Assembly (NCBI GenBank): GCA_001600815.1
Contig: BCKZ01000011.1
Location: forward strand, 289,622 to 353,621
Direction of reading: 5' to 3'
DNA from: Alloascoidea hylecoeti
Taxonomy: Eukaryota
DNA length: 64,000 bases
The notes beneath the pieces were generated by a model, which was not told the DNA's origin, did not search any database, and worked only from the letters and a program-made list of their open reading frames with translations. Shown here in pieces: positions 1 to 30,077 of this stretch (positions within the stretch are counted from its first letter, which is position 1; every line of letters begins with the position of its first letter). The position numbers and the translations under genes were made by a program.

Positions 1-1239
1 GGAATAGTAGCATCATCATCAGAATTTAAAGGTGGATCGATGAGATGGTGGAGAACAGCACAAGGAATGTCTCGGGATTTAAAATTAAATCTTGAGTTTT
101 CAAATTTATCAGAAGAAGAAAGAGAAGAAAGAAGAAGATGTTTTTGGTTAATTTATATGGTTGATAGACATTTAGGATTATGTTATAATCAACCATTAGC
201 AATATTAGATTCTGAATGTCTCGAATTATATCATCCAATTAGTGATTTTATTTGGAATCATACTGATCCAAGTTTAAAATTATCAAAAATACCAACAAAT
301 TTATTATATAAAGATAGAAAAATTGGTATATCTTTTAACTTTTCTGAAGGAGTTTATGGATTTTTCTTACCAGCAATGTCAATATTGGGTTCAATTGTTA
401 CAATGCATCATTTATTACAACAACCAATTAATTTCTTATCAAAAGATATGTTTCTTGATTTTGGTAGATCTCAGATTGAAATTGCAATAACTCAATATGA
501 ACAAGCAATTGATGATTTTAATAATAATAAAGGTACAAATGATAATAGTAATAATAATAATTTACAACGAAAAAATGAAATGATGGATGAAATATTAATT
601 GATTATTCTGAATATACAGATTGGATTAAATATCATGAAGTTTGGATTAACTATGCAAAGTTTTTTTCTCATGTTTTAAGATTATTATTATATATTTCTT
701 GGGATCCAATTGTCTTATTTAATACGCCAATTTCAACTATTTCAACTTCAAGAGATTTTCAAAAAGCTATTAAAGATTCTATATCAATTTCATTTGAATT
801 AGAGAAAATTTTAGAATTAGATCCAGAAATGAGATTAATTCCTTTCTTTTCAGGGATTTATTTATTACAAGGTGGTATTATTTTGTTAGTTATATTAGAA
901 AAAATGGGTAAAGATACAAGTAATGAAATTATTAAAGCTGCAGAAGTTGTTGTTAGAGCTCATGAAGTTTGTATTGTTACATTATTCACCGAATATCAAA
1001 GAGTTTTTAGAACCTGTATGAGAGCTGCTTTAAGATCAGTTAAAATGAAAAAATTAAGAGCAAAACAATCAAATTTAAAGCAAGTAGGGGATAATAATGA
1101 TGAACTAGATGTATTTAATGAATCAGAGTCTAGCGCTCATAATATTGAGAATAATGAATTTGAAGAAGTTTCTAAAAAACGAAGGGAAGCAATGGGAGTT
1201 TATAAATGGGCACCAGGTGGTTACGGTCTTGGAGTATGA
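1..1239 (+). CDS. xlnR: XlnR/Xyr1/AraR-family Zn(II)2Cys6 transcription factor, C-terminal part (5'-truncated by window edge)
   Basis: Frame is open from base 1 (GIVASSSEFKGGSMRWW...). It contains the fungal TF middle-homology motif EEEREERRRCFWLIYMVDRHLGLCYNQPL. It also has XlnR-typical C-terminal blocks PFFSGIYLLQG, VRAHEVCIVTLFTEYQRVFR and the terminal RREAMGVYKWAPGGYGLGV*, matching recalled XlnR motifs SMRWW / VRAHEACVVTLNTEYQR / YRWxGDGxGLAL. The Zn-cluster DNA-binding domain lies outside the window. Confidence 0.85.
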   Translation, partial: GIVASSSEFKGGSMRWWRTAQGMSRDLKLNLEFSNLSEEEREERRRCFWLIYMVDRHLGLCYNQPLAILDSECLELYHPISDFIWNHTDPSLKLSKIPTNLLYKDRKIGISFNFSEGVYGFFLPAMSILGSIVTMHHLLQQPINFLSKDMFLDFGRSQIEIAITQYEQAIDDFNNNKGTNDNSNNNNLQRKNEMMDEILIDYSEYTDWIKYHEVWINYAKFFSHVLRLLLYISWDPIVLFNTPISTISTSRDFQKAIKDSISISFELEKILELDPEMRLIPFFSGIYLLQGGIILLVILEKMGKDTSNEIIKAAEVVVRAHEVCIVTLFTEYQRVFRTCMRAALRSVKMKKLRAKQSNLKQVGDNNDELDVFNESESSAHNIENNEFEEVSKKRREAMGVYKWAPGGYGLGV

Positions 1240-1975
1240 CTTGAATTTATACAGGTTTGATTATTGTTGTATTATACAACTACAAACTTATAATTAAGTA
1301 ATGGTTATAAAAATTATATAATTACAATTGGGGTGCAAATATTATGAACACTCCAAATTTATTAATGATGACTGGGATTTTCTTAGAAAGAATATCTTTA
1401 TAATTATAATGAATGATCATGATTTGAAATGATAATAAATAGTTTTGATGTTTACGATAGTACTAATATGGATATGTTTTCTTTATAACATTTGATACGA
1501 TTTTTCTTATAAAAATATACAAATAATTGATAGTTAATAGCTAATATACTGTCATCCAATCCAATTCACTTTAATGAAAGATCAAGGAATATTGGATATT
1601 TTGGTAGCAGGAATTATATTCGTATCTCTTAACTTTTGAAGATTTGAACAATTTCAACCGATAATCTCCTCAAAGCTATACCGAAGGTAAAGTACAAAAC
1701 CTCATGAACAATTGAACATACTTGTGTTCTGAAACTTCCCAACCTTGTATGGAAAATTAATTTCCACGGCACTGGTCATAAAAGCTTTAAATATTATTTC
1801 ATTGCTCAAATCAACTGGACATTGAACACTTCACGGGTAAATTTCTAAAACATTAATATTTCATAAACTAACATAATTATGTGCCTGGAGATTAGACATC
1901 ATCAATAGAAATTCTATATAAACAGATCATCATTAATATAAATCAAAACATATGCCATACAATCATGAGTTATAA

Positions 1976-3739
1976 TTATACTACCAACTTATCTTCTGCC
2001 AATTTTAAAGCATCTACACCGGGTTGATACCTTTCCCAATCCCTTGCAACAACTTCTTCTTCTAAATCCCCATTAACTTTTTCTAATAAACCATTTCTAT
2101 CCCAATCGAATTCTTCTTTCGTCATATCTTGAAAAGTTTTATATTTTTCCTGTTGATCAACCCAAGCAGCTTTATAAGCAGCTCCAGTAGCACAAGCATC
2201 AGCAATTTCAATTTTAAATGATCCATGAGTTGGCCCAAAAACTTGTGACATTACACGACAAATTGATAAATTTCTTGAAGCACCACCAACGAAGAATACT
2301 CTATGTGGACGTTTTAATTTCGTTGGGTTGTCGATATCTGCAATCATTGGTCCCGATCTCATTCTCATTGATAATGCCTGGGATTCAACAATTGCTCTTG
2401 GATCATCATATGGTAAATTCCAGTTATCTATTTTATCTGAAAGATCTTTATTCTTAATATCATATTCATATCTTAATGTTTGAGCCTGACAATCAGGTAT
2501 AATTTCAGCAAGTGGGAAATAAACTCCAATCTTAATAGGATCATTTGAATTAACTTGTCCTAATGGTGGATTTGATTCAGCCAATTTATTAAAAATATCC
2601 CAATTATATTTATCTTTAATTAAATTTTTTGAATTTGGATTTTTTTTCAATTCAATTTGATTTAATTCATTTCTAACATTTTCACGAGCTAATGATCCAT
2701 TACAATAACAAAGCATACCCATAAATAAATTATTTGTAGTTGGATGTGTAAAAACATGATATAAATCAGATGGTACTAAATTTTCAGTTGTAATTAAAAC
2801 AGTTGTTGATGTTCCTAAACTAATCATTAAATCATCTTTTTCTAATGGTAATGATAAAATTGTTGATGGATTATCACCAGTAAATGTTGAAACTTTGCAA
2901 TTTTTAGAATCAAAGTTATATTTTGAGACCCAATAATTACTAATATTTCCTAATATTGCACCACCATTTTTTTCAACAGGACCTAATTTACTTAAAAGTT
3001 TCTCTTTTTCATTTGCATCAGATGAACCAGCAACCAATTCAATCAATGAATCATCCCATTTTTGATCATTAATATTCCATAAATTCATACCACAAACATC
3101 ACTAACATCAAATGGAGCAATTTTCCCTAAGAAAACTGATGATAAAAAAGAACTAACAAGCGATATTCTTGATGTTTTTTCATACTCTTTTGGATTTTGA
3201 TTTTTAAATTTCATAATTTGTGGACCTGTAAAACGATGATGTGCTTTTGATCCAGTAATATCTGCTAATTTTTGAGATCCTCCAACTTTCTCTTCAAACA
3301 ATTGACATTCTTTTGCAGTTGAATGATCTTGCCAATTTGGTGCATATTCATGTGATAAAACATTAGGATAATATAATTGATCGGCTAAAGATTTATCAGG
3401 ATCTAGTTTGTCTAGTATATCATTTGCTTCATAAGACCAATAAACAGATCCGTGTTGTTGACAAGCACCCGAAATTGCTCTTACATCTTTAAAGGGGAAC
3501 CCGTCCTTTTCCATCCTCGAGAACAAGACATCTAATGCCTCGAACCACATACGGACTGGGGCATAAACTGAATTGTCAACGGGATTTTTAAAAACACCTT
3601 TAGAGACACCATATGAAGGGGTATCAACATCAAATTCAACATGATATTGGTAATGCTGTGCTAAGTGAGCATCCACAGCAACTGCCTTAATCTGTTGGGT
3701 TGATAGATCAAAGCCTAAATATAAAGGAGTACCAGTCAT
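1976..3739 (-). CDS. XKS1: Xylulokinase (FGGY carbohydrate kinase)
   Basis: 587 aa ORF with motifs LYLGFDLSTQQ, ISGACQQHGSVYW, PNWQDHST, HRFTGPQI, TGDNP, ISLGTSTT, MLCYCNGSLARE and VGGASRN, typical of eukaryotic xylulokinase. Confidence 0.95.
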   Translation of the reverse strand: MTGTPLYLGFDLSTQQIKAVAVDAHLAQHYQYHVEFDVDTPSYGVSKGVFKNPVDNSVYAPVRMWFEALDVLFSRMEKDGFPFKDVRAISGACQQHGSVYWSYEANDILDKLDPDKSLADQLYYPNVLSHEYAPNWQDHSTAKECQLFEEKVGGSQKLADITGSKAHHRFTGPQIMKFKNQNPKEYEKTSRISLVSSFLSSVFLGKIAPFDVSDVCGMNLWNINDQKWDDSLIELVAGSSDANEKEKLLSKLGPVEKNGGAILGNISNYWVSKYNFDSKNCKVSTFTGDNPSTILSLPLEKDDLMISLGTSTTVLITTENLVPSDLYHVFTHPTTNNLFMGMLCYCNGSLARENVRNELNQIELKKNPNSKNLIKDKYNWDIFNKLAESNPPLGQVNSNDPIKIGVYFPLAEIIPDCQAQTLRYEYDIKNKDLSDKIDNWNLPYDDPRAIVESQALSMRMRSGPMIADIDNPTKLKRPHRVFFVGGASRNLSICRVMSQVFGPTHGSFKIEIADACATGAAYKAAWVDQQEKYKTFQDMTKEEFDWDRNGLLEKVNGDLEEEVVARDWERYQPGVDALKLAEDKLVV

Positions 3740-4132
3740 TAATATTAAAGATGTATAGTTTTATATTATTATCAAAAGTATAGAGCAATTAAAGCAATTA
3801 ATTAGTTATAAATTAATACGTTGAATATATTGATAGAATCCCCCCTCGGATGGTTGGTTCTTATATATTGATGATCGGGAGAAAAGAAATTCAAATAAAT
3901 ATCGTAGAAATCAATCAGGAAAATCAAAAAGTAAGTTTGAAGGTTGATCAAATAAATTCACTGCAAAATGAAAAATAAAATTCAAAATAAGTAATAAATT
4001 TAAACGGATCATATTCCTGTTTGGTCCCTGTATTTTTCCGGGCTTTATGCACTGTTTTCAGTATATACGTATTTGGTTTTACCGTTTTTGCTTTGACTTC
4101 TTCTATTTAAATTGGTTCACCATCGGGTGGTT

Positions 4133-4143
4133 CCCCACAATTT
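4133..4143 (-). promoter_or_regulatory. Putative Mig1/CreA glucose-repression site (AAATTGTGGGG)
   Basis: Exact match to AT-box + SYGGGG in the XKS1/XYL2 divergent intergenic region; motif match only. Confidence 0.45.
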
Positions 4144-4465
4144 GAAATCGAGAGGAATACAGTAATATAAGCGATTGTGGGTCGGAATTTGAAGGGAGTC
4201 GGAAATCTGTGACAACAGTGTTAAGGCCAATTTTAAGGATATCGATTTTAATGAAAACGGCAAAAAGGTCAAGGGATTAGAAATAATACTCAAAGGCTGG
4301 AACTATAACTGCCATGTCATATTGTTCATTCGACTATAAATCGCAAATCTCATGATTATAAAAACATGTAGATGATATATTACAAGCTACAGTAGTTTTA
4401 ATTTTATATATCGCGATCGTATAATATAATTATAGATTCCATGGATTACAATAACCTATACATAC

Positions 4466-4482
4466 CGGGAACTTAGTTTCCG
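4466..4482. promoter_or_regulatory. CGG-N11-CCG near-palindromic Zn-cluster TF site
   Basis: CGGGAACTTAGTTTCCG, inverted CGG triplets with an 11-bp spacer (Gal4-type geometry), in the divergent promoter. Confidence 0.4.
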
Positions 4483-4673
4483 TATACCATATCGCGGAGA
4501 ATTTTGTTATATTCCTGAATCCTAATCATTAAACTATTGAAATGTATCCTATAATTTAGAGCTTTAAACTAAGAGTGATAATGAGTTAAAAGTTGTAACT
4601 ATAAAGTTAATGTTTCAAAAATTTGTTCAACAGTAATCCAGTTATATTATAATTATAATTAACTATATTGTCG

Positions 4674-4681
4674 CGGATAAT
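4674..4681 (+). promoter_or_regulatory. XlnR-like site CGGNTAAW (CGGATAAT)
   Basis: Matches the CGGNTAAW motif described for XlnR; about 290 bp upstream of the XYL2 ATG. A related CGCGGAGAAT lies at about 4493-4502. Confidence 0.35.
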
Positions 4682-4973
4682 TGCTTCTCGAAGCTCTTAA
4701 ATTGTTGTGATCATGATTATATTCAATTATCCTCATGTAATCAAATCAAGAATAATGGAGAATTTTAAATTAAGCGAAATTTAATATAGTCAAAATAACT
4801 TTTATTGATAATTGATATCTGATCATTTATATATTTATATAACTCCACATTTTACTTTATACTTTTTTTTCATTCTTCATTGTATTTGATTTTCATACAT
4901 TAAACACAAAACAAAAACTCAATTAAGATTGAAAATTTTTGAATTTTTATAAATTTCTTTTTTTAACAGAAAA

Positions 4974-6059
4974 ATGTCATCTAATTTATCCGATCTTTCA
5001 ACTAAAGTTAATCCGTCATTAGTTCTTCGAAAAGTTCATGATATTGTTTATGAAGATCGTCCAGAACCAACGTTACCAGATCCTTATTATGTAAAAGTTA
5101 ACATTAAGAAGACTGGTATTTGTGGATCAGATGTTCATTATTGGGAGCATGGATCAATTGGTAATTTTATTGTTAAAGATCCTATGGTTTTAGGTCATGA
5201 ATCAGCAGGTATTGTAACAGAAGTTGGATCTGCTGTTACTACTTTAAAAGTCGGTGATAGAGTTGCTGTTGAACCAGGTATTCCATCTCGTTATTCAAAT
5301 GAATATAAAGCAGGTTTATACAATTTATGTCCACATATGGCGTTTGCTGCTACACCACCATATGACGGTACATTAGCAAGATATTATACCGTACCTGAAG
5401 ATTTTTGTGTTAAATTGGCAGATAATGTTTCTTTCGAAGAAGCTGCAATGTGTGAACCATTATCAGTTGCTGTTCATGTATCAAGATTAGGTAAAGTTAC
5501 ATTTGGATCAAAAGTAATTGTTTTCGGTGCTGGACCAATTGGTTTATTAACAGTTGCTGCTGCTAAAGCCTATGGCGCAACTGAAGTTATTGCTGTTGAT
5601 ATTGTTCCAAGTAAATTAGAAGTTGCAAAAGAAATGGGTGCAACAAAGATTTTCATTCCATCGAAGGGTGATTCTTCGGAAACTTCTGCAGAAAAAATTC
5701 AAAAAGAATTTGGATTTTCACCAGATGTTGCAATTGAAGCATCAGGAGCAGAAGCTTCAATTCAAACAGCAATTCATGTTTTAGCTCCAGGTGGAACATT
5801 TGTTCAAGCAGGTATGGGGCGTGATTACGTTAATTTCCCAATTACAATGGTATCAATTAAAGAAATTGAAGTTAAAGGATCTTTTAGATATTATTTTGGT
5901 GATTATCCACGCGCTGCTGAATTAATTTCAACAGGTGCTGTTAATGTTAAAAGATTAATTACTCATAGATTTAGATTCGATCAAGCAATTGAAGCTTTTG
6001 CAACTGTTAGAGATGGAAAGGCAATTAAAGCTATTATTGATGGACCTGAAGATCTTTAA
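4974..6059 (+). CDS. XYL2: Xylitol/sorbitol dehydrogenase (MDR Zn-dependent)
   Basis: 361 aa with GICGSDVHY, GHESAG, NAD-binding VFGAGPIG...VDI. PGIPSRYSNEYKAGLYNLCPHMAFAATPP lacks three structural-Zn cysteines, as in yeast XYL2/SOR1. Confidence 0.93.
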   Translation: MSSNLSDLSTKVNPSLVLRKVHDIVYEDRPEPTLPDPYYVKVNIKKTGICGSDVHYWEHGSIGNFIVKDPMVLGHESAGIVTEVGSAVTTLKVGDRVAVEPGIPSRYSNEYKAGLYNLCPHMAFAATPPYDGTLARYYTVPEDFCVKLADNVSFEEAAMCEPLSVAVHVSRLGKVTFGSKVIVFGAGPIGLLTVAAAKAYGATEVIAVDIVPSKLEVAKEMGATKIFIPSKGDSSETSAEKIQKEFGFSPDVAIEASGAEASIQTAIHVLAPGGTFVQAGMGRDYVNFPITMVSIKEIEVKGSFRYYFGDYPRAAELISTGAVNVKRLITHRFRFDQAIEAFATVRDGKAIKAIIDGPEDL

Positions 6060-6404
6060 ATTTGATTTAAATTTATTTTTATGATGTTGATGAATATTTA
6101 GTACACATAGATAATTAAGTATACAAATAGTTGTTTAGTTTGATAATTAATTTTAATGAATTTTATTTTGTTATTTGTTTTCATCATCAGGTAATAATAA
6201 ACATTACAGATATATTCAATTGTTACAGAATATCAAAAGCTTAAGTAAGCCAACTACACGTGACACAATTAATATGAGTGTATGGGTGTATTGCATTTGG
6301 CCAATCACGACCTACGAATTAGTAGCGTATGAAAGGATGTCAGCCAGTTTTAAAACCTTCATATTTTTTCGAAATCTAGCTCCACGACTGAAATTTGTTT
6401 AGAA

Positions 6405-7135
6405 ATGTCTGCTGTTACAAAATGTTTTAAGGCAGGTCAATCTTCAGCCCTTATGGGTTGGTCCTCTAAGTTGTTAGCTTCACAGGGTACGAATCTTTTT
6501 CAATCCAATCAGTTTTGTCAGTTAACTAATGATGTATATGTCTAGTCCGAAGTTTGTCTTCAACCTCACCAGCAAACAAACCAACTTATCAAATGCCTGA
6601 TTTTTCCCATTACGTTAAGGAAAACAGGAACACAGATGCTAACAGAAACATTACATATTTCGCTGTCGGTGGTCTTGGTCTTTTGTCAGCTGCTGGTGCA
6701 AAATCAACTGTCACTGAATTTTTATCTTCAATGTCTGCTTCTGCTGATGTTTTAGCTTTAGCAAAAGTTGAAGTTGATCTAGCTGCAATTCCAGAAGGTA
6801 AGAATCTTGTTGTTAAATGGCAAGGTAAACCTGTTTTCATCCGACACAGAACTCCAGATGAAATTCAAGAAGCAAATGAAGTTGATATTTCATCATTAAG
6901 AGATAAAGAAGCAGATGCCGATAGGGTTAAGAATCCAGAATGGTTAATCATGTTGGGTATCTGTACACATTTAGGTTGTGTGCCAATTGGTGAAGCTGGT
7001 GATTTTGGTGGTTGGTTCTGTCCTTGTCATGGTTCCCATTATGATATTTCAGGTAGAATCAGAAGAGGTCCTGCTCCATTAAATTTGGAAATTCCAGAAT
7101 ATGATTTCAACGGTGATATGTTAGTAGTTGGTTAA
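6405..7135 (+). CDS. RIP1: Rieske iron-sulfur subunit of cytochrome bc1; join(6405..6486,6546..7135)
   Basis: CTHLGCVP and CPCHGSHYD Rieske boxes. The 59-bp intron GTACGA...ACTAAT...TAG (6487-6545) joins a mitochondrial presequence ([11 protein letters not shown]...) in frame. Confidence 0.96.
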
Positions 7136-7716
7136 GAAAATAATTAAAATAATCCGTATATACATCAAATTAAACAATTTTAACAAATCAAAACATATCC
7201 AAAAAAAAGAAAAAAATTGTCATAGTTATATTAATTAATAGAGGTTTTCATTTGCAATATTATTATTAGCTATTTTATATTAGTAGCTAAAAGAAGTCAA
7301 AATCTTTCTTTATCCGTTTAATTTTAATTAATTTAAACCTTTCATTTACAACACTAAACTATTTTCACAGCCTACAAAAGAAGATCTAGATGATAAAATG
7401 AAAACGGTATAATTAAATAGCCTTAAAAGAGTGTATATCAATTACAATTTTTATACAATATGTATTAGTAATCTCTACTATGTACGATTACCTAAGATGC
7501 TGATCAGCATTACATAAAGATCAATAAGCGTATGCGTATCAGTACATGAATATTTTAATCGTAGTTTTCCGTACAGTTTTGTCTTCTATTCGATCACGTG
7601 CTCGTATAGTATCATTTACATATATAGTCCTCTCTATTTCTTCTTTTCTTTCTTCGTTTTTTATCAGGAATATATCAGGAATATATAAAAACGCGGTAAT
7701 TGGTGTTATTGATTGG

Positions 7717-10101
7717 ATGTTCGAACACGATAACAGTTTAGATTTGAAGAAATGTCTTGCGCGACTTCCGGAGTTGTACGACTTCAATTTTGATGCCGAT
7801 TTCCAACAAGTTCTATATCGTTTATTTTACTTTTCTCTTTCTAAAGAAGGGAAATATCTATCATTAATGTTCCCAAAGGCATCAAAATCTTCATTTCCTA
7901 CTAGTTGGGCAGATATATTGAGTGAGGTTAATAAGACACAAAATATCTCATGTTCCAACTCCGACCGCACGCATGAACAGTTTTGGTTCGATTCCCAGCA
8001 AAGTAAACCAACCGTTATATCGCATAAAGGTAGAGTTTGCAATGCAAAGTTTCATGAAGGTGACTTAATTTATAAATGTCGGTAAGTTTTGATATAACTT
8101 TTATGTTTTAAGTTTTTTGATTTTTAATTTTTAAGTTTTAAGTTTTTAAAATTACCATACATATTCATTATTTAATGCATTATTTAATTATTTTATTCAA
8201 TTACACATTATTAATGTTTAAATTTTAGAGATTGTTCAACAAATGATTCATGTGTTCAATGTGAAAGCTGTTTCGATCCAGAAACACATAAAAACCATCA
8301 AGTATTAATGTTAATAACAGAAACATCTAATGCAAATGGTGTTTGTGATTGTGGTAATCCTGAAGCATGGAGGAATAAATCAATTAAATGTAAATTATCA
8401 CATCAGAATAATTTTCAATTACCAAATGATTTGAAAGATTCAATTTATAATACTTTACAAATAATTTATGATTATTTTTTTGATGTTATGAATGCTGCTG
8501 AATTACCTTTATTTTATGGTTATGCTAGAAAAAGATATGGTGCTGATCCTCGTACAATTGGTTATTTATATCAAGAATATTCTGATAAAAGATATTTATC
8601 TCCATCTGTTTATGGCGAGTTAGAAAATAATTCAAAAAATTTTATACTAGTTATCTGGGATAATGAGAATTTTGAAACCGTTGAAGAATTGTCAGATTTG
8701 ATATATGAAATTGAAAATGAAATGGCAACTGAACATAATATTGATGAAATATCAATGGAAAGAGCTTCATCATTGGCTACTGAGTTACGTAACAATGGTC
8801 GTGTTCCAATTCCATATAGCTCACCGGACATGTCTTTTTTAATGCAACGGAAAAGAAAATATGATTTAAAAGGTTTTATTACAATGATACCAAGTTCAAG
8901 AGATTATTTCCGTGAATTAATCGCTTGTACAGTCGCAGATTGGAATAAATGTACTTATATTTCTATCCTGCCTGATATATCAGTTTGCTTGAAGAAAACA
9001 ACTGGAGATTTATTATCGAAACCAAGAACTATTGGTTGCATTTCAGATACCTTATCTTGTCAAAGGTTTGCCGCTAGAAATATGGAATGTTTAGCTATTG
9101 CTTTAGTTAAGGATGGAAAAATACCAACTATTGTTCAAGAAAAACCACCATTATTTGATAATAAGGACCATCTTTTTGATAAAAGTGGTTACTTAGAAGA
9201 TATCAACTTGATTGATGATGATAATAATATTAATAATAATAATGATATTTTAAATTATATTAAAACCCAAGATGAAAAATCATTAATTCAATCAAGATTT
9301 CAATTATTAATGTATTTTGAAGTAAGATTTTCAAAAAAATTACGTGAATTAATTCATGAATTATATATGGTTATAATTTCATCAGATTTAAAATTAAAAG
9401 ATTTATTTACTTTTCAATTTATTGAAGTTTATCCAATTATATATAATGTTTTTTTAAAAATGGATAGATATCCTCAATTTTCATCACTTCAAAATATTTC
9501 AACTCAATTATTTTCAAGTAAATCACTTGCTAATAAATTAATTAAATTTAGAGGTATTACAGTACTATTATCAACTTTATATTCAATTTTTACAGCTCAA
9601 GAATGTCTTATCTGTGATAGTTCAAAAATCTGGCAAATGGATCGTTCTGGTATAATTGAAGATAATGAAGATCAATCAATTGATGTTATTGAAACTTCAA
9701 TTATAGATGCAAGTGAAACCATCTTATCTAACATTATAAGTATTATTGAATTTTCAACAGAATATACAACTTTAGCATTTAAAGATAGATATTTAATTTG
9801 GGATATATTAAAAGTTTGTACAGGATTTAATCCACATACGAGAAATAAAATAATTAATAGTACAAAGGAAAATGATAATAAATCATATGAATTATATTGG
9901 ATATCATTATATTTACCAACAATTATAAATATTTATAAACTTGCAAGTAATGTTAACTTTATGAATTATATTACTAATTATGATAAAATAAAAATTATTG
10001 AAGAAGCTATTAATTTTTATTCTTTTCAACTTTATAATATTGAAGATGAATTAATTGATATTGAAATACCAAATTATAAAAGTATTTTATTAGATTATGA
10101 T

Positions 10102-10157
<56 letters not shown>

Positions 10158-13100
10158 ATTTCAAAATTTTATAAAAATTATTGATTTTAAAGTATCTGAA
10201 GGAAAATTAAGTTTTTATCATCCTTTTAATACTCATATTTCTTATTTAATTTCGAATTTACTTAATGGGGGTGAAGATTGTGCGCAATTAATGAAAAAAT
10301 CATTTCAAAATAAACAAAATACATTTTTACAAGATGCTTTAAATTTAATAATTGATTATTCATTAAGAACAATAGTTTATTGTGAACAAGTTTCATCAGG
10401 ACTTTGGGATAAAAATAATGCGGATGGTGAAGAATTAAAAGAATTGATGTATATGTATAAAAGACATTATTTCTTAACGGATGGTATGTTAAGAGATATG
10501 TATCTTGTTCAATTGATGTGTTGTATATCAGACAATGGAGAATATTTTATTACATTACTTGATAGATGGGGATTATTAGAATGGACATTACATAATTCTA
10601 AATTTGAGCATGAGGATAAATTATCAGCAACTTTAGAATCTTTTTCAAAAGTATTATCTATATTCATGCTTGAAAGACCAATTTTATCAATTAAGAATGA
10701 TAGAGAAAGAAGACGATTCAGTTTAAGAAGAGTATTAATAAATACTTTATGCTCTAGACCATTAAAATTTTCAGATATGAAAAAATATATCTTAGAAGAA
10801 TTTATAACTGATGATCAATTTGATTCAACATTAAAAGAAGTTTCTATTTATCATGAACCAGGTGATAATATTGATGATGCAGGTGTTTATAAATTAAAAG
10901 AAGAATGTATGGATGAAGTTGATCCATTTGCAATATATTTTTGTAGTTCACAAAAAGAAGATGTTGCAAAATTAAAAAGAGATTATATTTTTAAAAAATT
11001 ACAAAAGGGAGAAAAAGAAGTGAATAATATTTTAGATTCATCAAATGTTATATTATATCCAACTTTATTACCATTAAATAATTCAGTTTATTCAAATTTA
11101 ACAAATATTTTAAAACATGATTTGTTTATATTATTCTGTTGTCGAGTTTTGGTTAACTCTTTTCAAGATGATTCAGTCATTAATGATAGTACATTATATT
11201 CAATTCTTAATTTGATTTTTATTGCAGTACTAGAAGATGATAAAACATCAAAAAATCTACCAAAATTTTCAAAACTTATTATCAAAGAATTTCATACAAC
11301 AGATTTAAGATCATATGCATCATCATCATCATCAAAATCACTAAATTTATGTTCACTTCTTTTTAATATTTTAAAAAATCCAAATAATTATGAAGCTCAT
11401 CTTCAATCAAAATTAATTGCAATTTTTAGATTAATAATAAAAGATAATAATCCTGAATCAAATATAATTAAAGAAAGGTTAATATCATCAGATCTTGAAT
11501 TTGTTTTAATTCAACAAAAAGGTAATAAAAGAAAAGATCCACCACCAACAAATGCATATGAAGAACGTAAAAAAATTGGTGCTGAGAAAAGGATGAGAAT
11601 TTTACAAGAATTTTCAAAAATGCAAAGACAATTTTTAAATAGTAATAAAACAAGTTTTGATTTAGCTACTTCTTCAACAACTATTTCATCATCAAATTTA
11701 AAAGAAAATACTTCTGGTAATCAAGTTAATTTTTCTCTATCTGTATCAAACACACCCGAATATATAGCTACAGGTAGTTGTCTTTTATGTAAAAATAATG
11801 CTACAAATGATGAATTATTCGGAGTTATTGGTTATTATTCTAAATCATCGCGATCTGTTATAAAACACCTTCCAAAAGGTTTATTATCTGATGATAACTA
11901 TTGGCTTCTTGATTCATTTGGTCATTCATTAAACCTAGATGTTGAGGTAACAGATTACAATACAGATGATCAATATAGTAATCAAAATTGGAGAAGAGGT
12001 CTTCAAGAGCTTAAATCAAAACGTAATAATCATGCACTTACAACCAGTATATATAATGAATATCATACGAATTTGAGTGAAGGGATTATGGTTGGTTGTG
12101 GGCATGGAATGCACTTTAAATGTTATGAACAATATATCAAAAGAGGAGATGATCCTATGAATAATATCAAGAATTATAATTCATCAATGGGAAAGTTATG
12201 TTTTAGTTGTCCGCTTTGTAAAACAATTGCGAATTCGATTATGCCAGTTATTATGTATGAATCCTTACCTAGTTTTAAACAGCTTACGGCACCAGCTTTA
12301 AGTAACGATTTATGGAATGATAGTTTTAATATTGAAAATATTAAAGCAAGAACTCCAGTTAGAAATATGGTTACTAGACAATTAGCGCAGGGTGACGCAT
12401 TTATAAGTGAAGATGAAAAGAAAATGGAGAAGATTATTGACACTTTACAATATGGTTGTATTCCAGTTGCAATTGAAAAAGAATATGATCAAAAAATGAG
12501 TTATGAAGAAACATTAAATGCAATAGGAAATGTTTTAATAAACACAATTAGTTCTGTTGAGATTTCTCTTAGAGGAGTGAAAAATAAAAAAAATGCATAT
12601 GGACCCCGTTTAATGGTACATAATATTCCAGAATATACATTAACATTGATAAGAGGCCTTACCTCTTATAGAGCTGCAATATCACAAGTATTGAAAGAAA
12701 GTTCTTCAGTTGATAAAATTGGACCAAAGGATTGTTTATTTAAGGCATGTGTTTATGAATATTTCTATCAATTTGATAATTTTCATGAAATCGCTAGATA
12801 TTTTCTTACAATGGAGATCGTTCGTGTAACAAGGGATATAATTTCAAATATTGAATATGGTTATAATAACGAATTCAATGATCATGATAAAATTAAAATC
12901 GATATTGAAGATATTCCTCTTAATACTAAAAGTTTTAATGAATTCAATTATAATGAAGGAACAATTAGACAATATTTATTACAATTTGCTTTACCAACAT
13001 CAACATTAACTCAATCAAAAATTTCAAGATCAGTTAAAGGGATTTTTAAAATTATTGTTAAAAGTGTTACAATATTTTTAAGAAAATTATTAATATTTGC

Positions 13101-13827
13101 ATTCATCATAACTCCAATAACAATGGAGTATAATATAAAAGATATATCTGAATGTGAAGCAGATAGGCTTTGTCGGATCTTTAGTTTCCCATCAATCTTT
13201 AATATTATTGAAAGATGTTTAATCTCAAATACATTTGAATGCTCTTATTATAACAAATCTATTCAAAATTTAGAACAAAATATATTAAATAAAGTTGATG
13301 TCAATGAATGGTCAAGTCCGATACGATATACTGGAGAATATAGTTTAATTGATCTCAACGAAAGATTAGATTATTATCTTTCAAAACAGTTCAGAACGGA
13401 ACACAATCTTGAGCCACAAATGGAATTTGCGATTTGTCTGAAAACAGGAAATATAATAAAAGAATTTGATGAAACTTGGTCAATAGCAAATTATAATGGA
13501 AATATAAGTATTGGTCGCGGATCAACCAGCCAAGATGCATATGAATATCAAATACAACAAAAATTACTAGATTCAAACATTTATTTCTTTCCAAAAGAAA
13601 ATGTTTTCCGTTTAAGACATTGGGATATTATAGGAACAGCTACTATTCCAGCACCTTATTGTGACTCACATGGTGAGAGTCGTACAATTTCATGTTTTGG
13701 GAATAGAATGTTATTTCTAAATAAACAAAAATACTACAATATTCAACAATTGTGGCTGACACATCAAATCGGGCCTTTTATTGCCCGGCAAATGATGAAT
13801 AATATTGACATACTTCCCGATATATAA
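7717..13827 (+). CDS. UBR1/UBR2-like N-end-rule E3 ubiquitin ligase; join(7717..8081,8229..13827); start could be as far up as 7546
   Basis: Splicing the GTAAGT...TAG intron 8082-8228 reconstitutes the UBR box (CNAKF...YKCRDC...CVQCESCF...H..H...CDCGNPEAW). Split RING-H2 is present (CLLC...GCGHGMHFKC...CPLCK), plus C-terminal APYCDSHGE. Confidence 0.88.
10103..10146 (+). repeat. (AAT)n microsatellite encoding poly-Asn in the UBR gene
   Basis: Uninterrupted AAT run visible. Confidence 0.9.
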
Positions 13828-14203
13828 GTAGGATGTATACCTGTCAAATAACATTATATAGAGCTAAATAAATATAGGTATAAGTCTAAGTATATAAATA
13901 AGATATAGAGGAGAAGATAATTAACACACAAATACAACACAAACAGATCTAATAATTACACTGTATTGCCTGCCTCCCAATAAATATTAGTGTGTTAAGC
14001 ATTTCCACATATACCATTTGATTTCAACCAATCCCAATCACCAGCTCCATACATATTAAAATAATATTCATGTCACACAGGTAGCATTTCATTTTTTTTT
14101 CTCTTCAAGCTCGCCTCCTTATAATCATTATATAATTCTTTCTCTTTTCCTTAATTTATATTTATTAAATTTATAATTATATACCTATAATTTAAACCCA
14201 AGA

Positions 14204-15529
14204 ATGCCTTCGGATTCTAATAATAATAATGGAAGACCTCCGAAACCAAAGACTCCACCTGGTTGGGAGGTCAATTGGGATCCAAACTATGAAACTTATT
14301 ATTTCGTTAATTTGAAAACTGGTACCTCCCAATGGGATCAACCAACCTCTCCTGCAACACCCGATGGTGGGAAAACTCAAAACGGTAATAAAAACGAAAA
14401 GCAAAAAGATGAAGAAGATAAAAAGAAAAAAGATGAAGAAAATAAAAAGAAAAACGATCATGTTGATACTTTATATGTCACTGGACCTATGACCGATGAT
14501 GATATTGATGATCCACCAGTTAGTGTTCCTGATAGTCCTACTAACAAGTATGGTCATGGGAAACAGAGTGATTATCCTCCTCCAGACACACAACTCAAAC
14601 CTCATTCTTATGGCTATTCAACTTTAACTTCAGACACAGACTCTGCCCCTCCAAATTTAAATACATCATCCAAAAAACAAGAAATTGGCAAAACATTACT
14701 TGCTGTCGGTGCTGGTGTGTTTGGTGGTGCGGCATTGGCTAAATTAATCGACCATAAAAAGTCTAAGCATAAGGATTCTGATACCGCTTCAGTGGCATCA
14801 TCATCGTCTTCTTCTTCTTCAGATTCTGGTGATGAAAATGAAAATTATAAGCCTTCAGCTGACGATAAAATACAACATCATGTTAGTGAAAGTTCCTCAG
14901 ACAGCGATAGTAGCAGTAAACCAAATGTTATGTATGCTACAAAACCTTCCATAGATTCATCTGGTGCTGCTGCTGGTGCTGCTGCTGCTGCTATGGCAGC
15001 CTCCGCAGCCGGTATTGCTGGATTGAAAATGTCTGATAAGCCACCAATCTCAACCCCCAATAAAGTTACTATAGAAGAAGTTGAAGAGCCAGAAACAGTT
15101 ATACATGTTAGACCTCCGCCAACATATCCTCCAATCTCAACCGTAGTTGCCCCGGAGATAATCTCCCCACCTCCAGCGGCTACCAAAATCACAGAATATA
15201 TACCAGCTCAAGAGGTTACTACAGAACTTAGTCCAGTTAGTTCAGTTAATTCTGATGGATACATTACGAGACGCGTTCAACTTACACCAGAAGAGGTTGA
15301 AGAATATCTTTCCAAACAAAGAAATAATAATTCTAGTTCATATTTTAAATCAACGTTTTATAAAAAACAGGATAATGAGCCTGAGGTTTATAAGAGTACA
15401 ATTACCAAATATGATTCAGATGGTTATAAAACAATAGTAACTGAATATTCCCCACAAATTTCGGCACGCGAAGAATCTTATACTAATTATGGTCCTCGTT
15501 ACAGTGGCCACGCTCGAAGGAATAGTTAA
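14204..15529 (+). CDS. WW-domain protein, Wwm1-like N-terminus, low-complexity remainder
   Basis: PPGWEVNWDPNYETYYFVNLKTGTSQWDQP is a WW domain. Short glycine-zipper-like LLAVGAGVFGGAALA; Ser/Pro-rich tail. Confidence 0.8.
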   Translation: MPSDSNNNNGRPPKPKTPPGWEVNWDPNYETYYFVNLKTGTSQWDQPTSPATPDGGKTQNGNKNEKQKDEEDKKKKDEENKKKNDHVDTLYVTGPMTDDDIDDPPVSVPDSPTNKYGHGKQSDYPPPDTQLKPHSYGYSTLTSDTDSAPPNLNTSSKKQEIGKTLLAVGAGVFGGAALAKLIDHKKSKHKDSDTASVASSSSSSSSDSGDENENYKPSADDKIQHHVSESSSDSDSSSKPNVMYATKPSIDSSGAAAGAAAAAMAASAAGIAGLKMSDKPPISTPNKVTIEEVEEPETVIHVRPPPTYPPISTVVAPEIISPPPAATKITEYIPAQEVTTELSPVSSVNSDGYITRRVQLTPEEVEEYLSKQRNNNSSSYFKSTFYKKQDNEPEVYKSTITKYDSDGYKTIVTEYSPQISAREESYTNYGPRYSGHARRNS

Positions 15530-15903
15530 ATTACTTAACTTGCAAAAGCTGCATGGTATAAACTTCAAATCAAATCTTAACCATGTGTGATTAAAACTCA
15601 AGTCGCGCTTCAATTTCAAGCACGTTAATCAAATGATAGGATGAAATGAATTATAATAATTAAATCAGAAATAGCACTTAAAAAGGGGAGAAAATCCCCT
15701 TTTAAGATAGTTTTTTTTATTTTTATTTTTTTTTAAACGAAATTAATTAATATCATACTACTTATTATATAATATTTGATATATAAAGTAAATTAAAGTT
15801 TATATAACTTCTACTATTCTAACATTTTCATTATTAGCTATTTTTTGTCATAGAAATTGTCATCATTATCTTCCATTAATATTTCATCTAATTATATTCA
15901 AAT

Positions 15904-18315
15904 ATGATTCAGAACAGTATACCTAATAGCCATAATAATAGTCAGTCGTTTAGCCATAAGTATCGATCTTCGGGTTCAAAGAATCACAAATCCCAAGCCA
16001 CTACAGCTGATTTGTTGGACTTGGATACTCTAGCGATGGATAATACGGGAAGATATCCAAAGCAAGCCAATATACATAGTTTAACTAGTAAACGCTCAAG
16101 TATAAGTCTGAAAAAAAAACAATCTCTTCAACGATTAAGGATTAATGCTAAAACCTCAGTTGTTAAGAACCCAAGTCCAACAATGATGACAAACACTAGC
16201 TATAACTATATTGGTGATGCAGAAAACATGAGATATTTACAACACAGTCGGTCTCCAGTATCAGATTTAAGTCCTATTCATTATCGTAATGATAGTTATG
16301 GTTCTTCTAGAAGTTATATCCATCAACATCAACAATCTCATTCCCAGTCTCCAGTCTACTCCCCTAATACTCATCACAGCCAAAAATTCCAAATGCCAGT
16401 ACCTCCTACTATTGCTATGGGGATTAATATGGGGAAACAAGCCAAATCCCAACGAACACGCTCGGCCATAGATTACCAACATCAAACTCCTATCCCCAGG
16501 ACAAGAAATAGGACGATATCAGCTGGGTCCTTCCCGGTGAAAGCGATGGTTCCTCCGTCAACTTCAATGATGTCAATACAGTCTGCAATATCATCTGCGG
16601 GAACCTCGGACACCGGATCTACTTCAGGTACAAACTGCAGTTCTATTCCTGAAACCGAACATTTGAAGTCTCAAATGCATTTTATTAATGGTATATTTGA
16701 AGAGGAGCCAATTGGTTTGGTATCAGATGCTGATACAGGGATGAACAAGGTGTCACCACAACAACGCACAGAAACGCCTCTTTATCCCAATATTGAAGGC
16801 ACAAAGACAAACTTAATAAATGAAGATGGCTTTTTAACTGAAAACTCTTCTTCTTTTACTTCTTATCCAGGAGACAGTACGAAATCAAATCTATATATCA
16901 GTAATCTTATTAAGAAATTATTAAAAATGCAAGAAATTAAACTTGATAATCAGGTCGACATAGATGAATACTCCTCAACAGTATTACCAGAAAATATACC
17001 CTTACCAAGTTTTAAATTATATTTAAATGAATATAACAATTTAAGAGAAATCAATTTAAAAGCTGAAGAAAAATTAAAAAAATTACAAACCAATTTATTA
17101 AATTACTCAGAAGAAAAAATTAATGATTTATCAGAAGAAATTATTGATCAAGATAATATAATAAAAAATCAAAAAGATGTTATTTTAAATTTGAAACAAA
17201 TAACATCAAATTATGAAGAAATAATTAAACAATTTGAACAAAATCAAAAAGAAAATGAATTAATAATTTCTAATTTTAAAAAAGAATTAAATGATACAAA
17301 AGAAATAACAAGAAGGAATATAGAAGATAATGTAGAAGAAAAAACATATCGTATCGAAGAATTAGAAACTGAATTAACTGAATCTATTCAAACAATAAAT
17401 GATATGGAATCAAGTATAAATGATTATGAACAAAGAATACATAATTTAAATTATGAAAATGCAAAATTAACTGAAGAATTACATGAAAAAACATATCAAA
17501 ATGAAATCTGGTTAGATGTTATTAAAGAATTTGAAGATGAACAATCTAATAATAATAATAATAATAATAAAGATGATGAATCAAATGAAAAAATTGAATC
17601 TTTAAAAATGTCATTAAAATTATCACAAAATCAATTAACAATAACTGAAAAACAATTATCAAATAAAATAAGTAAATTACAAAAAAAATTATCTTTAGAG
17701 AAAAAAGTTAAAAGTTCTCTTGATAAACGAAATCAAAATCGTCAAATTCAATTATCAAAACTTATTTCAACTCCAAAATCATCAGTAGATTCAACCAATT
17801 TAACACCAATTTCAATCTTATCTTCTCCAACCTATAGTAAGATATCTGCTGGTTATTCTAGTAGTAGAACAAATACTCTAACAAGTGAATCAATAAATCG
17901 TTTTCAAAATCAACCATATCAATATAAATCATTCTTTAAAGGAAACTCAAATTCACCTCCAAATTTATTCCATTCTTCTCATAAATCATTTAATTCTAAT
18001 TCAACATTCACATCTACAAGTTCAAATTCATTTAGTGATAATTATCACATGCAAGGTGATGATAGTTATTCCATGTCTGATAATGATACAGGATCAGTTA
18101 GATCATCAGACAGTTCACATAGCTCAGATTCAAACACCTACGATTTATCATCATCATTTAAATTGATATCAAATGTTAATAGTTATGATAATATTGATAA
18201 ATTAGAATCATTAATTGAATTATCTAATGTTAGAAAGGTTGGTGATATCGGTATTAATTTTATAAATGTTTCAAGAGAAGTTAATGTTAACAATGATAAT
18301 ATACAATCACAATGA
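15904..18315 (+). CDS. Hypothetical protein with Ser-rich disordered ends and a long central coiled coil
   Basis: 803 aa ORF with an E/K/Q/N-rich heptad region around aa 375-620; no family recognised. Confidence 0.75.
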   Translation: MIQNSIPNSHNNSQSFSHKYRSSGSKNHKSQATTADLLDLDTLAMDNTGRYPKQANIHSLTSKRSSISLKKKQSLQRLRINAKTSVVKNPSPTMMTNTSYNYIGDAENMRYLQHSRSPVSDLSPIHYRNDSYGSSRSYIHQHQQSHSQSPVYSPNTHHSQKFQMPVPPTIAMGINMGKQAKSQRTRSAIDYQHQTPIPRTRNRTISAGSFPVKAMVPPSTSMMSIQSAISSAGTSDTGSTSGTNCSSIPETEHLKSQMHFINGIFEEEPIGLVSDADTGMNKVSPQQRTETPLYPNIEGTKTNLINEDGFLTENSSSFTSYPGDSTKSNLYISNLIKKLLKMQEIKLDNQVDIDEYSSTVLPENIPLPSFKLYLNEYNNLREINLKAEEKLKKLQTNLLNYSEEKINDLSEEIIDQDNIIKNQKDVILNLKQITSNYEEIIKQFEQNQKENELIISNFKKELNDTKEITRRNIEDNVEEKTYRIEELETELTESIQTINDMESSINDYEQRIHNLNYENAKLTEELHEKTYQNEIWLDVIKEFEDEQSNNNNNNNKDDESNEKIESLKMSLKLSQNQLTITEKQLSNKISKLQKKLSLEKKVKSSLDKRNQNRQIQLSKLISTPKSSVDSTNLTPISILSSPTYSKISAGYSSSRTNTLTSESINRFQNQPYQYKSFFKGNSNSPPNLFHSSHKSFNSNSTFTSTSSNSFSDNYHMQGDDSYSMSDNDTGSVRSSDSSHSSDSNTYDLSSSFKLISNVNSYDNIDKLESLIELSNVRKVGDIGINFINVSREVNVNNDNIQSQ

Positions 18316-26963: not shown

Positions 26964-28699
26964 CTATAAAAATGACATGCCAATACCAAATTGAATCCCT
27001 TTTCTAACAAAATCATCATGCCTTGCAATTAAAGGCATTGTTAAATTTAATTCTAATCGTACAGCTGGATGTCTATAAACAATACCAAATCCAGCAGAAA
27101 TTGAAGGTTCTAACAATAATTTTTTTAAGTTTTTAAAATCATTTTCACCATTAGAATTTAAAAGATTATTTATTAAAGAACCAGAATTTATAAATGAATG
27201 AAATCTTAAATTTGAATCTTTTTTCAAATTTGGTAATCTTGTAAATAATGATAAACCATTTGATAAGAAAAAATCACCACCCAATGAATCATTTAAATCT
27301 TTTGGTCCTAAACCATTTAAATAAAAACCTCTTACATCATTTGGTCCACCAATGAAAAATCTATCCATTGGATGAGATTCTCTTTTTTCTTTTTTATTAT
27401 TTAAAAAATTCATTAAAAATCCAAATCTTGAATTAAAATGAAATATAAAATCATCATTTTTTAAAGATTTCGATTTTGAAATTTCAAAAGTTGATTTTAT
27501 AAAATTTTCATGACTTTTTAAAAAGTTAAAAATTGGTAAAATACCAGAAATTTCAGTATTTAATTTTAAATTTAAACCTTTTGTTGGTAATAATAAATTA
27601 TTTCTTGAATCAATTTCAAAATTATGAATTAATGATGTTTTAAAATTATCACCTGCTGATTTTAAAATTGATTCACTTGAAAAAGGTTTTAAATTATAAA
27701 TTGTTCTCCAAACAGTTTCAAAACCAAATGAATGTTTAATAATTGGTTTTGGTAATCCATTTCTAGTTATTCTTTCTTTTGAATTCAAATTCATATTATT
27801 TAAATTTAAATTTAAATTTGTATTTATATGTTTAAAATTAGTTGAAAGTCCAACTAATTTTTCATGATGTGATGACCATGGTATATCTCTACTTGTAATA
27901 AATCCTAATACTTCATTTTTCCAATGTGCTGAATTATTAATTGGTTGATTGAAATTAATTAAATATGATGATTTTGTTCTTGTACCAATTGTTGCATCTA
28001 ATGTTAAATTTTCTCCACCACCAAAGATATTCTTAATTGCCAATTTTGTATATCCATTACCTTCTCCATTACCAACACTTGTACCAGTTTCCATGAAGAA
28101 TTGTTTTGATGGTAATACATGTAATGAAGTTATTAAATTTAAAGTATCACTTTCATTATTATTATTATTATTTAATGATGATAAAGGATTCATTAAATCA
28201 CTAAAGAAATCCTTTGGTGCTACATCTAAAGTATATTGAACATTTTTAAAAATATTAAATGATACTAAATTTGCTGTAACTTCATCAATTGTTGAAATTA
28301 ATGATGATACTGTATGTTGTTTATTAATAATTGGTGAAATTTGGGTTTGTAAGAATGATGATCTTGTTTTATTACCACCAATTATATTTATTTTCGATAT
28401 ATTAATAGGTCTAGTTGCATTATGCGTTAACTATCCATATGAAATAAATATATCGTTAATAACTGATCTCATGAAATTTAAACAAACATAAAAACTTACA
28501 ATTTCTTCTAATTCCTTTCTTGCCAATTCCTGTTGTTTTTGTAAATTTTCTTGAAGTTGTTGTTGTTTTTGTTTCTCATTGGGATCTTTATATTTGGTAA
28601 CCCGAGAAGCAAGCTATCCAACAAAACAAAGTTAGTTGGATATAATATGGTCATGGATTATGTGATCGTTATTCTTACTGAATCATCATCTCCAATCAT
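26964..28699 (-). CDS. SAM50: Mitochondrial outer-membrane beta-barrel assembly subunit; complement(join(26964..28430,28500..28613,28679..28699))
   Basis: Omp85 motifs NIFGGGE, DRFFIGGPNDVRGF, RLELN, QFGIGMSFL. Two introns (28614-28678, 28431-28499) restore the N-terminal POTRA region in frame. Confidence 0.92.
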
Positions 28700-28894
28700 T
28701 TTTCTCCAAGTTCAATTTAAAGATTAACTTGCAATTGAATTCCATTAATTGAAGGTGAAAAATTATGAGTTCTCACCAAAACCTGAAAAGTCAAAAGTAT
28801 AATCTTTGGGTGGTGTATGGATGTTACAAGATATTGATATTTTGAATATGATACTTCAAATCAAATCGAATCAAAGAAAAGAAAAAAAGTAGAA

Positions 28895-30077
28895 ATGACG
28901 TTTACTTCAGAACCTCCTCGTTTTGTTAAAACCGCTGCAATTATGGTATGAGTTTTTTTTTTTTCATTTTGTTACAATTGTTGATTCAAACTTAATTAAG
29001 AGAACGAGACATTTTAAATCTTAAGAAAAGAATTATAATTAATATTCCAATTATTATCAAATTTAGATTATTGGAGATGAAGTTTTAAATGGTAAAATCA
29101 CAGACACAAACTCTAAATACTTTGCAAAGAAATGTTTTGAATTGGGTCTTGAATTAAAACAAATTGTAGTCGTCGGAGATGAAGAAAAAGATATTGTTGA
29201 AACTATTGTAAATCTTGCTCGGAAATATGATTTCATTTTAACTTCTGGAGGTAATATATATATAAAGTTCAAAATACTGATGGTACTTATATTTACTAAT
29301 TATTGATTATACTATAGGGATTGGTCCAACACATGATGATATCACTTATGAAGCCAGTAAGACAGATTTCAATTTAAATAAAAGGTCTCAACAGTTTACT
29401 AATCTTCAAATTTATCAGTTTCCAAAGCGTTTGGAGTAAACCTGGAATTGGATGATTATACGGTAAATCGAATGAAATCATTAAGAAATATTAAATTTGA
29501 TTCTTTTGATGAAGAAGCAAGAAAGGCCCAATTGCGTATGGCAACACTTCCTACTGGTCCATTAGCCAAGTACTTATATGTTTGTGATGATTTATGGGTG
29601 CCCATTGTTCGTGTTGCGGGGAAAGTCCACATTTTACCAGGTGTTCCTCAGTAAGTACCATTTCCTATTAGAAGTGTCATACATAATTAATATACTAACA
29701 GAAACATATTTCATGATAGATTATTTGAAAAGTTGCTTGATGCTTTGATCTCTCAAACAATATTTGAAACAAGTGCATTTCATCGTCTTTACGTCCTAAC
29801 AAAAATGAAGGAGTCTCGAATGGCGCCATATCTTACCATTTTACAAAACAAAGTGGATGAAAAATTCAAAGCAGGAGAAATCCAAAGTAAGATTAAAATT
29901 GGTTCATATCCTCATATGGGCGTTGAATTAAATACAGTTAGTATAATTGGTGATAGTAGAGATGAAGAATATCTTAAGGAATTAGTGATTGATATTGAAA
30001 AAAATGTTGAAGGGAAACAAATTTCCAAAGAAGAAGAAGAGAAATTATCAGAGAATATTGATCCAGTAAAACTCTAA
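28895..30077 (+). CDS. CinA/MoCF-biosynthesis-domain protein (YMR178W/Fpy1-like); join(28895..28945,29067..29250,29318..29356,29419..29650,29720..30077)
   Basis: Spliced motifs IIGDEVLNGKITDTNS, TSGGIGPTHDDITYEA, ILPGVP, KIGSYP. All four introns are GT..AG and preserve the frame. Confidence 0.88.

Follow-up and report, generated by a model that had tools for sequence, protein, structure and literature searches.

A predicted XlnR/AraR-family regulator gene adjoins divergent xylulokinase and xylitol dehydrogenase genes in the budding yeast Alloascoidea hylecoeti

Introduction

Can a budding yeast hold the genes for two consecutive steps of pentose catabolism next to the gene for their own regulator? 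The question is raised by positions 1–6059 of a 64,000-nucleotide stretch of Alloascoidea hylecoeti DNA (assembly GCA_001600815.1, contig BCKZ01000011.1, positions 289,622 to 353,621), which is referred to below as the window. In this segment the 3′ part of a transcription factor (TF) gene is followed by genes for a xylulokinase and a polyol dehydrogenase, an arrangement that suggests a small self-contained pentose module. A first-pass annotation of the same DNA had proposed a self-regulated xylose-catabolism cluster with a regulator of the XlnR type. To our knowledge, the switch that turns on the xylose genes in natively xylose-using yeasts is still largely poorly understood.

Sugar-catabolic clusters with their own Zn-cluster regulator are already known in yeasts, as in the case of MAL and GALLAC. 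The XlnR family has been studied in filamentous fungi: in Aspergillus niger, XlnR and AraR jointly control xdhA and xkiA, and a double mutant expressed no pentose-pathway gene tested (PMC3161754; this and the other articles given by PMC number are cited for the parts of their text that were available). In the same article, Battaglia et al. (2011) described ascomycete yeasts as being without XlnR and AraR homologues, and the available part of a 2026 paper states that Saccharomycotina lack homologues of XlnR (PMC12969433). Our literature search, conducted outside most subscription journals, returned no description of yeast XlnR-family homologues, no XYL2–XKS1 cluster and no pentose cluster with an XlnR-family regulator.

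Gene content and arrangement of the locus

The window opens within the TF gene (1–1239, forward strand), of which the C-terminal 412 amino acids (aa) are encoded by an open reading frame (ORF) that is open at the 5′ end of the window and matches PF04082 (Fungal_trans, E = 1.9e-10). It is separated from the next gene by a convergent (3′-to-3′) spacer of 736 bp according to the ORF coordinates (1240–1975), in which no ORF of at least 80 aa, no tRNA and no Rfam family was found. The intronless gene for a 587-aa xylulokinase of the XKS1/XYL3 type (FGGY_N and FGGY_C domains) occupies 1976–3739 on the reverse strand, and the intronless gene for a 361-aa NAD-dependent polyol dehydrogenase of the xylitol/sorbitol type (XYL2 type; ADH_N and ADH_zinc_N domains) occupies 4974–6059 on the forward strand. 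The TF and xylulokinase genes are thus tail-to-tail and the two enzyme genes head-to-head, with a shared divergent promoter of 1,234 bp between the two start codons (3740–4973). The DNA is AT-rich, with 22–35% GC in 500-bp windows. The earlier reading of three adjacent genes in the order TF(+), XKS1(−) and XYL2(+) is borne out by the ORFs and by Pfam, solved-structure and database matches, as is, from the ORF coordinates, that of a divergent promoter common to both enzyme genes.

For the kinase, human xylulokinase (4bc2) was the sole solved-structure match at E ≤ 1e-10 (E = 5e-90), and the best named relatives were fungal xylulose kinases with 44–52% identity. Since it has both FGGY domains and is closest to characterised xylulokinases, the protein is predicted to be a D-xylulokinase. 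In a tree of such kinases it grouped with those of Lipomycetales against those of Pezizomycotina (SH-aLRT, the Shimodaira–Hasegawa-like approximate likelihood ratio test, 99), on a long branch. Because of this grouping with budding-yeast kinases, the locus appears to be native and not the result of a transfer.

The top solved match of the dehydrogenase was a xylitol dehydrogenase (7y9p; E = 4.6e-110, 371 bits), followed by sorbitol dehydrogenases (338 and 329 bits; E = 5e-100 for the human sorbitol dehydrogenase), with L-arabinitol 4-dehydrogenase (E = 1e-71) well behind both. With its ADH_N and ADH_zinc_N domains and a xylitol dehydrogenase as its closest match, the protein is a putative xylitol dehydrogenase, although the margin of 371 to 338 bits is one from which a preference for xylitol over sorbitol is not readable. 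The two enzyme genes represent consecutive steps, from xylitol to D-xylulose and from D-xylulose to D-xylulose-5-phosphate. Genes for consecutive steps of a pathway therefore lie side by side, with the gene for a regulator of the type that serves this pathway next to them, as in a fungal catabolic cluster.

Phylogenetic placement of the regulator

The TF fragment comprises the middle-homology region and the C-terminal regulatory region, and it could be aligned with named Penicillium XlnR proteins over 100% of its length (30–34% identity, E = 1e-57 to 4e-62). Its relatives align to their last residue, with 28 invariant columns across 26 aligned sequences. By its middle-homology region and by homology to XlnR that extends through the C-terminus, the fragment is assigned to the XlnR/AraR family. 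When longer proteins were searched with a word-indexed method, those of yeasts came out on top (Geotrichum, Trichomonascus, Lipomyces, Dipodascopsis and Tortispora, 33–40% identity), followed by Penicillium XlnR. The nearest relatives of the TF are ~40–47% identical to it, among them a Dipodascopsis tothii protein with 45%. An exhaustive HMMER search returned 373 representatives at E ≤ 0.001, which indicates a compact family; after the yeasts, the nearest sequences were filamentous-fungal groups of the XlnR family.

To place the TF within this family, phylogenies were constructed with FastTree (174 rows; the input consisted of 173 of 175 sequences, with BLAST matches spanning at least 280 query residues) and with IQ-TREE (61 and 60 rows; these were hand-picked, as 60 representatives of the FastTree groups together with later named matches). 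One split was common to all of these trees, with an SH-aLRT of 100 in IQ-TREE. On one side of it, which comprises 28 rows in the 60-row tree, the proteins come from Pezizomycotina, with Neolecta contributing the one named representative of Taphrinomycotina; nine of these rows form the group that contains the XlnR-named proteins, six form another that contains two AraR-named proteins, and there are other groups of paralogues as well. The opposite side (32 rows, including the window TF) consists exclusively of budding-yeast rows or rows without a species label. The AraR-named P0424 and P0425, together with an 828-aa Rasamsonia protein, are found in the 6-row group on the filamentous side, away from the window TF. 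Constraining the window TF to the 9-row XlnR group, which was defined after the tree had been seen, came at a cost of 37.9 log-likelihood units (approximately unbiased (AU) test, p = 0.0087).

On these phylogenies the TF belongs to the budding-yeast counterpart, or sister clade, of the whole XlnR/AraR group, and it is placed outside both the AraR clade and the XlnR clade (XlnR sensu stricto), a position inside the latter being rejected by the constraint test. Given the yeast-side placement and the rejected constraint, it is not a strict orthologue of either regulator. The description of the regulator as 'XlnR-type' in the first-pass annotation therefore stands in the sense of homology to XlnR, but not in the strict sense, for which that annotation had itself named a grouping outside XlnR/AraR as the adverse outcome.

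The yeast clade is the sole budding-yeast counterpart of the XlnR/AraR group. As a well-supported branch with members in Lipomyces, Dipodascopsis, Geotrichum, Trichomonascus, Tortispora and this organism, it contradicts both published statements of absence. The proteins in this branch include P0005, P0007, P0011, P0012, P0019, P0022, P0025, P0028, P0241, P0246, P0396 and others, P0028 (883 aa) and P0396 (683 aa) being the Lipomyces starkeyi homologues. A pairing of the window TF with P0376 in the FastTree phylogeny (branch 3.15) was flagged as a long-branch join, and P0376 was left out of the 60-row tree and of the AU test. A redundancy filter at 70% identity, which kept 28 of 120 sequences, was too coarse and went unused.

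The TF is truncated by the edge of the window and not by a contig end: positions 7813–16812 of a 17,938-bp public contig from the same organism correspond to window 1–9000, and this contig holds a further 7.8 kb of DNA 5′ of window position 1. The relatives of the TF have ~240–640 additional N-terminal residues that include a Zn2Cys6 domain, and the corresponding part of the window TF lies upstream of the window. No full-length copy of it was found in the protein collections searched, where the best match was 40–47% identical. In the Lipomyces and Dipodascopsis proteins of the yeast clade that come closest to the window TF in identity, the DNA-binding domain is the same as that of Penicillium canescens XlnR at 36–39 of 45 residues, compared to 20 of 45 for an AraR-like protein. 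If the family reading is true, the complete TF would be expected to have an N-terminal Zn2Cys6 domain like RACDQCNQLRTKCDG.

Occurrence in a second sample

A 7,090-bp contig from a wood-decay metagenome covers window 1–6844, from which it differs by 10 substitutions but no indels. Of the substitutions, one is synonymous and falls in the TF gene, two change amino acids of the kinase, and seven are non-coding, from which it follows that all three genes are intact in this second sample. The near-identical stretch is also present in three sequencing runs of one organism besides the wood-decay metagenome. The three-gene arrangement is real and intact.

Since only 10 differences in 6,844 bp separate the window from the metagenome contig, the organism or a close strain of it lives in decaying wood. 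Wood is a xylan-rich habitat, and this was counted in favour of a pentose module. Both markers, the TF and the kinase, place the organism in an isolated budding-yeast lineage.

Contigs from the wood-decay metatranscriptomes X7 and X8 fell on none of the three genes and are uninformative on expression; they matched solely short conserved or low-complexity pieces at ~7014–7049 and ~8114–8146. The low-complexity stretch at 8114–8147, within an intron of the UBR1-type gene described below, attracts many contigs of 31–37 nt from several runs, including RNA runs, and this pile-up looks like a simple-repeat artefact and not like expression.

A possible regulatory link and its alternatives

The explanation that we favour, tentatively, is that the neighbouring TF is a pentose-responsive activator of the enzyme pair that acts via CGG-type sites in 3740–4973. 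The TF would bind CGG-containing sites in this region in the presence of xylose or of a pentose or polyol further down the pathway, and the kinase and dehydrogenase genes would probably be co-induced from the 1.23-kb bidirectional promoter. Any autoregulation of the TF, as implied by the 'self-regulated' cluster of the first-pass annotation, would be a further element of this prediction. The ancestral tie of the TF family to xdhA and xkiA, as known from Aspergillus, would thereby be retained, in a pentose-catabolic gene neighbourhood of an isolated, early-branching and wood-associated budding-yeast lineage. It is also conceivable, although we regard it as rather unlikely, that a pentose regulon of the XlnR family is older than the divergence of budding yeasts from filamentous ascomycetes and survives in early-branching orders of budding yeasts, its regulator having become linked here to two of its ancestral targets in a module of ~6 kb with a xylose-responsive regulator and a bidirectional promoter.

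The shared promoter has a GC-richer core at ~3800–4500 and was examined for candidate cis-elements, all of which are given on the forward strand. The pattern TCGGRTGGTT occurs twice in the 64 kb, as TCGGATGGTT (3846–3855) and TCGGGTGGTT (4123–4132), with both copies in the shared promoter, compared to an expected number of 0.10; 1 of 100 shuffles reached two copies. Two direct GTCGGAA heptamers, spotted by eye and post hoc, start at 4181 and 4198 (4181–4204) and make up two of the three sites of this heptamer in the window. An inverted triplet pair, CGG-N11-CCG, lies at 4466–4482; it is one of three such sites in the window and has the spacing used by Gal4-type zinc-cluster factors. The pattern TCGCGGAKAAT, repeat family D5, is likewise found twice in the 64 kb, as TCGCGGAGAAT (4492–4502) and TCGCGGATAAT (4671–4681), both in the shared promoter, where 0.02 were expected and none of 100 shuffles reached two, again in a post hoc count. 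D5 was the sole family containing GC in a repeat search of the promoter, which otherwise returned chiefly AT-rich chance pairs. The three GC-containing promoter repeats are candidate TF sites, to be taken as leads and not as evidence. No enrichment in the shared promoter was detected for GGCWWW, GGNTAAA or SYGGRG.

A number of observations, both within the window and in other genomes, weigh against a regulatory link between the TF and the enzyme pair. The TF and xylulokinase genes are convergent and have no promoter in common. The canonical site GGCTAR, to which XlnR binds in its target promoters, occurs 0 times in 3740–4973 (14 times in the 64-kb window, with 23 expected), and the enzyme pair thus lacks the promoter element of an XlnR regulon. 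The candidate motifs described above were derived from the same promoter in which they were counted, making their enrichment partly circular, and the DNA-binding domain of the TF lies outside the window, so that its binding specificity is not readable from the fragment. Neither a xylose reductase nor a sugar transporter, for both of which the first-pass annotation had suggested looking, is present among the ORFs of at least 150 aa in the remaining 58 kb downstream. The branch of the TF is long (1.55 changes per column) and its amino-acid composition odd, and its position within the yeast clade is unsettled. Its yeast relatives have 2–4 paralogues of the TF per genome, and the copy in the window therefore need not be the pentose one.

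As regards other genomes, the TF and the kinase are on contigs of differing size in all 14 species that appear in both match lists (seven Lipomycetales, five Penicillium, Kalaharituber and Glutinoglossum), a comparison that is a proxy for linkage at best where a species has several assemblies. The TF homologue of Trichomonascus vanleenenianus (TRVA0_015S00518) is, by locus tags, on a different contig from the xylulokinase; the xylan-induced xylitol dehydrogenases and xylulokinase of this yeast are on contigs 002, 006 and 057 (PMC13130702). We also examined 80 metagenome loci (811 kb) returned by a scan with the yeast-clade alignment; 35 of them continue for 3 kb or more downstream of the TF, and 36 extend for 4.5 kb or more upstream of the matched part. 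Using tblastn with the window kinase, a xylulokinase was found near the TF relatives in 0 of the 80, and the window dehydrogenase gave one weak match (27%), to another dehydrogenase. Only three of these loci, all Geotrichum-like, belong to the yeast clade, and they have as neighbours genes of the RAD21 and VMA12 types and one for a nitronate monooxygenase. Matches to the TF and to the kinase in Logan, JGI and ENA shared no contig size, among the best 120 of 5,425 kinase matches. The linkage is hence absent from all relatives examined, which are all distant (nearest kinase 52% identical, nearest TF 40–45%), and the three-gene arrangement is probably lineage-specific. For the genomes and loci compared, the first-pass annotation was right to describe these genes as unlinked in other organisms.

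How readily such a neighbourhood could arise by chance was estimated by rough arithmetic of our own that assumes ~6,000 genes: the probability that two named genes adjoin is ~3e-4, and a member of one small TF family on either side adds a factor of ~1e-3. Given that it was a post hoc observation in a scan of very large size, the enzyme pair alone could be a chance occurrence somewhere; the triple of TF, kinase and dehydrogenase is unlikely to have arisen in this way. It may be that the enzyme pair alone is the unit and is driven from its shared promoter by some other factor. The TF gene would then lie beside it by accident and control other genes, such as those for secreted xylanolytic enzymes, or have taken on an unrelated role as the paralogues diverged. 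We consider this a serious though doubtful alternative. It would account for the convergent orientation without a common promoter, the lack of GGCTAR between the enzyme genes and the absence of the linkage from every other genome or locus examined, and it fits with the several paralogues in relatives and the long, compositionally odd branch of the TF. However, a neighbour from a family of 1–4 genes among ~6,000 would be met by chance with p ~1e-3, which is a rough estimate. A missing common promoter is also no obstacle at the MAL loci, where the regulator adjoins its targets without sharing a promoter with them. Adjacency without a shared promoter is common for the regulators of yeast sugar clusters, as in the GALLAC cluster (PMC12930983), and the TF family in question is the one known to control exactly both of these enzyme genes in Aspergillus (PMC3161754).

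A different possibility concerns the substrate and not the regulator: the module might serve general polyol catabolism (xylitol, sorbitol and D-arabitol-derived xylulose) by means of a broad dehydrogenase, in which case growth on xylose would be unnecessary. The scores of the sorbitol dehydrogenases come near that of the solved xylitol dehydrogenase, no xylose reductase is encoded in the window, and XYL genes are not always predictive of xylose growth in budding yeasts (PMC11067038). We nevertheless regard this as improbable, in that the top solved match is a xylitol dehydrogenase and the partner gene encodes a xylulokinase, which acts on the compound that xylitol oxidation yields. The near-identical DNA in a wood-decay metagenome also speaks for a pentose module, and a reductase gene could be located in the 7.8 kb 5′ of the window or in another part of the genome.

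Comparison with known sugar-catabolic systems

In layout, the locus resembles the MAL loci of Saccharomyces, in which the gene for the Zn-cluster activator MALx3 is found beside permease and maltase genes with a bidirectional promoter; in both cases a Zn-cluster regulator gene stands beside two pathway genes that have such a promoter. The MAL loci differ in TF family, pathway and sugar, are subtelomeric and repeated, and have a proven regulation, compared to one that we infer for the window. The GAL1–GAL10 pair of Saccharomyces is co-induced via CGG-triplet sites, and the one CGG-N11-CCG read from the sequence of the window is a candidate for such a site. In contrast to the TF studied here, GAL4 of S. 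cerevisiae has no linkage to the genes that it controls.

With the regulon of XlnR/Xyr1/XLR-1 and AraR, the locus shares the TF superfamily (PF04082) and, in the yeast relatives of the TF, an XlnR-like DNA-binding domain, as well as the enzyme genes, xdhA and xkiA being under XlnR and AraR in Aspergillus niger (PMC3161754). It differs in that the window TF belongs to a separate budding-yeast clade and that GGCTAR is absent from the window promoter; furthermore, regulator and targets look unlinked in 5 of 5 Penicillium species, judging from contigs of differing size. The GALLAC cluster of Sungouiella (Candida) intermedia is likewise lineage-specific, with its own Zn-cluster regulator LAC9_2 and with enzymes that include the aldose reductase XYL1_2, but it is devoted to galactose and lactose, has a regulator of the Gal4/Lac9 type and has been genetically tested (PMC12930983), whereas the window has another TF family and other enzymes.

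Remainder of the window

The rest of the window contains housekeeping genes, namely those for a Rieske iron-sulfur protein, a UBR1-type ubiquitin ligase, a WW-domain protein, a ubiquitin hydrolase, a DFP-domain (DNA/pantothenate metabolism flavoprotein) protein, an Omp85-family (SAM50-type) protein, a Mid2-like sensor, MED7, a Bul1-like protein, Lon protease, SelO and a peptidase of family M49. None of the ORFs of at least 150 aa in this part encodes an aldo-keto reductase. A tRNA scan and an Rfam scan of the window were both empty.

The Rieske gene (6405–7135) has an apparent short 5′ intron: from an ATG at 6405, a GTACGA donor at 6487 and an AG acceptor at 6544–6545 would give an in-frame join to the ORF that starts at 6593, and the XYL2–RIP1 spacer would then be 6060–6404. 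The gene for the UBR1-type ligase (7546–13827) consists of two ORFs with an apparent intron of 147 nt within the UBR box (GTAAGT donor at 8082, AG acceptor at 8227–8228), the join again being in frame as read. Two stretches, 28200–34200 (~6 kb) and 44600–53800 (~9 kb), have no ORF of at least 150 aa and few of 70–149 aa. Such gene-poor stretches are unusual for a budding yeast; in GC content they do not stand out from the window, and they gave no Rfam or tRNA match.

Implications

The linkage of the TF gene to those for a xylitol dehydrogenase and a xylulokinase is the first circumstantial hint that we have found of a pentose role for the yeast branch of the family. If the favoured explanation, in which the TF activates the enzyme pair, is true, it names a candidate xylose regulator that would be testable in tractable yeasts such as Lipomyces starkeyi, and it would provide a natural pair of xylose-responsive regulator and promoter for engineering. 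It may be the under-appreciated XlnR branch of budding yeasts that proves more useful than the locus itself.

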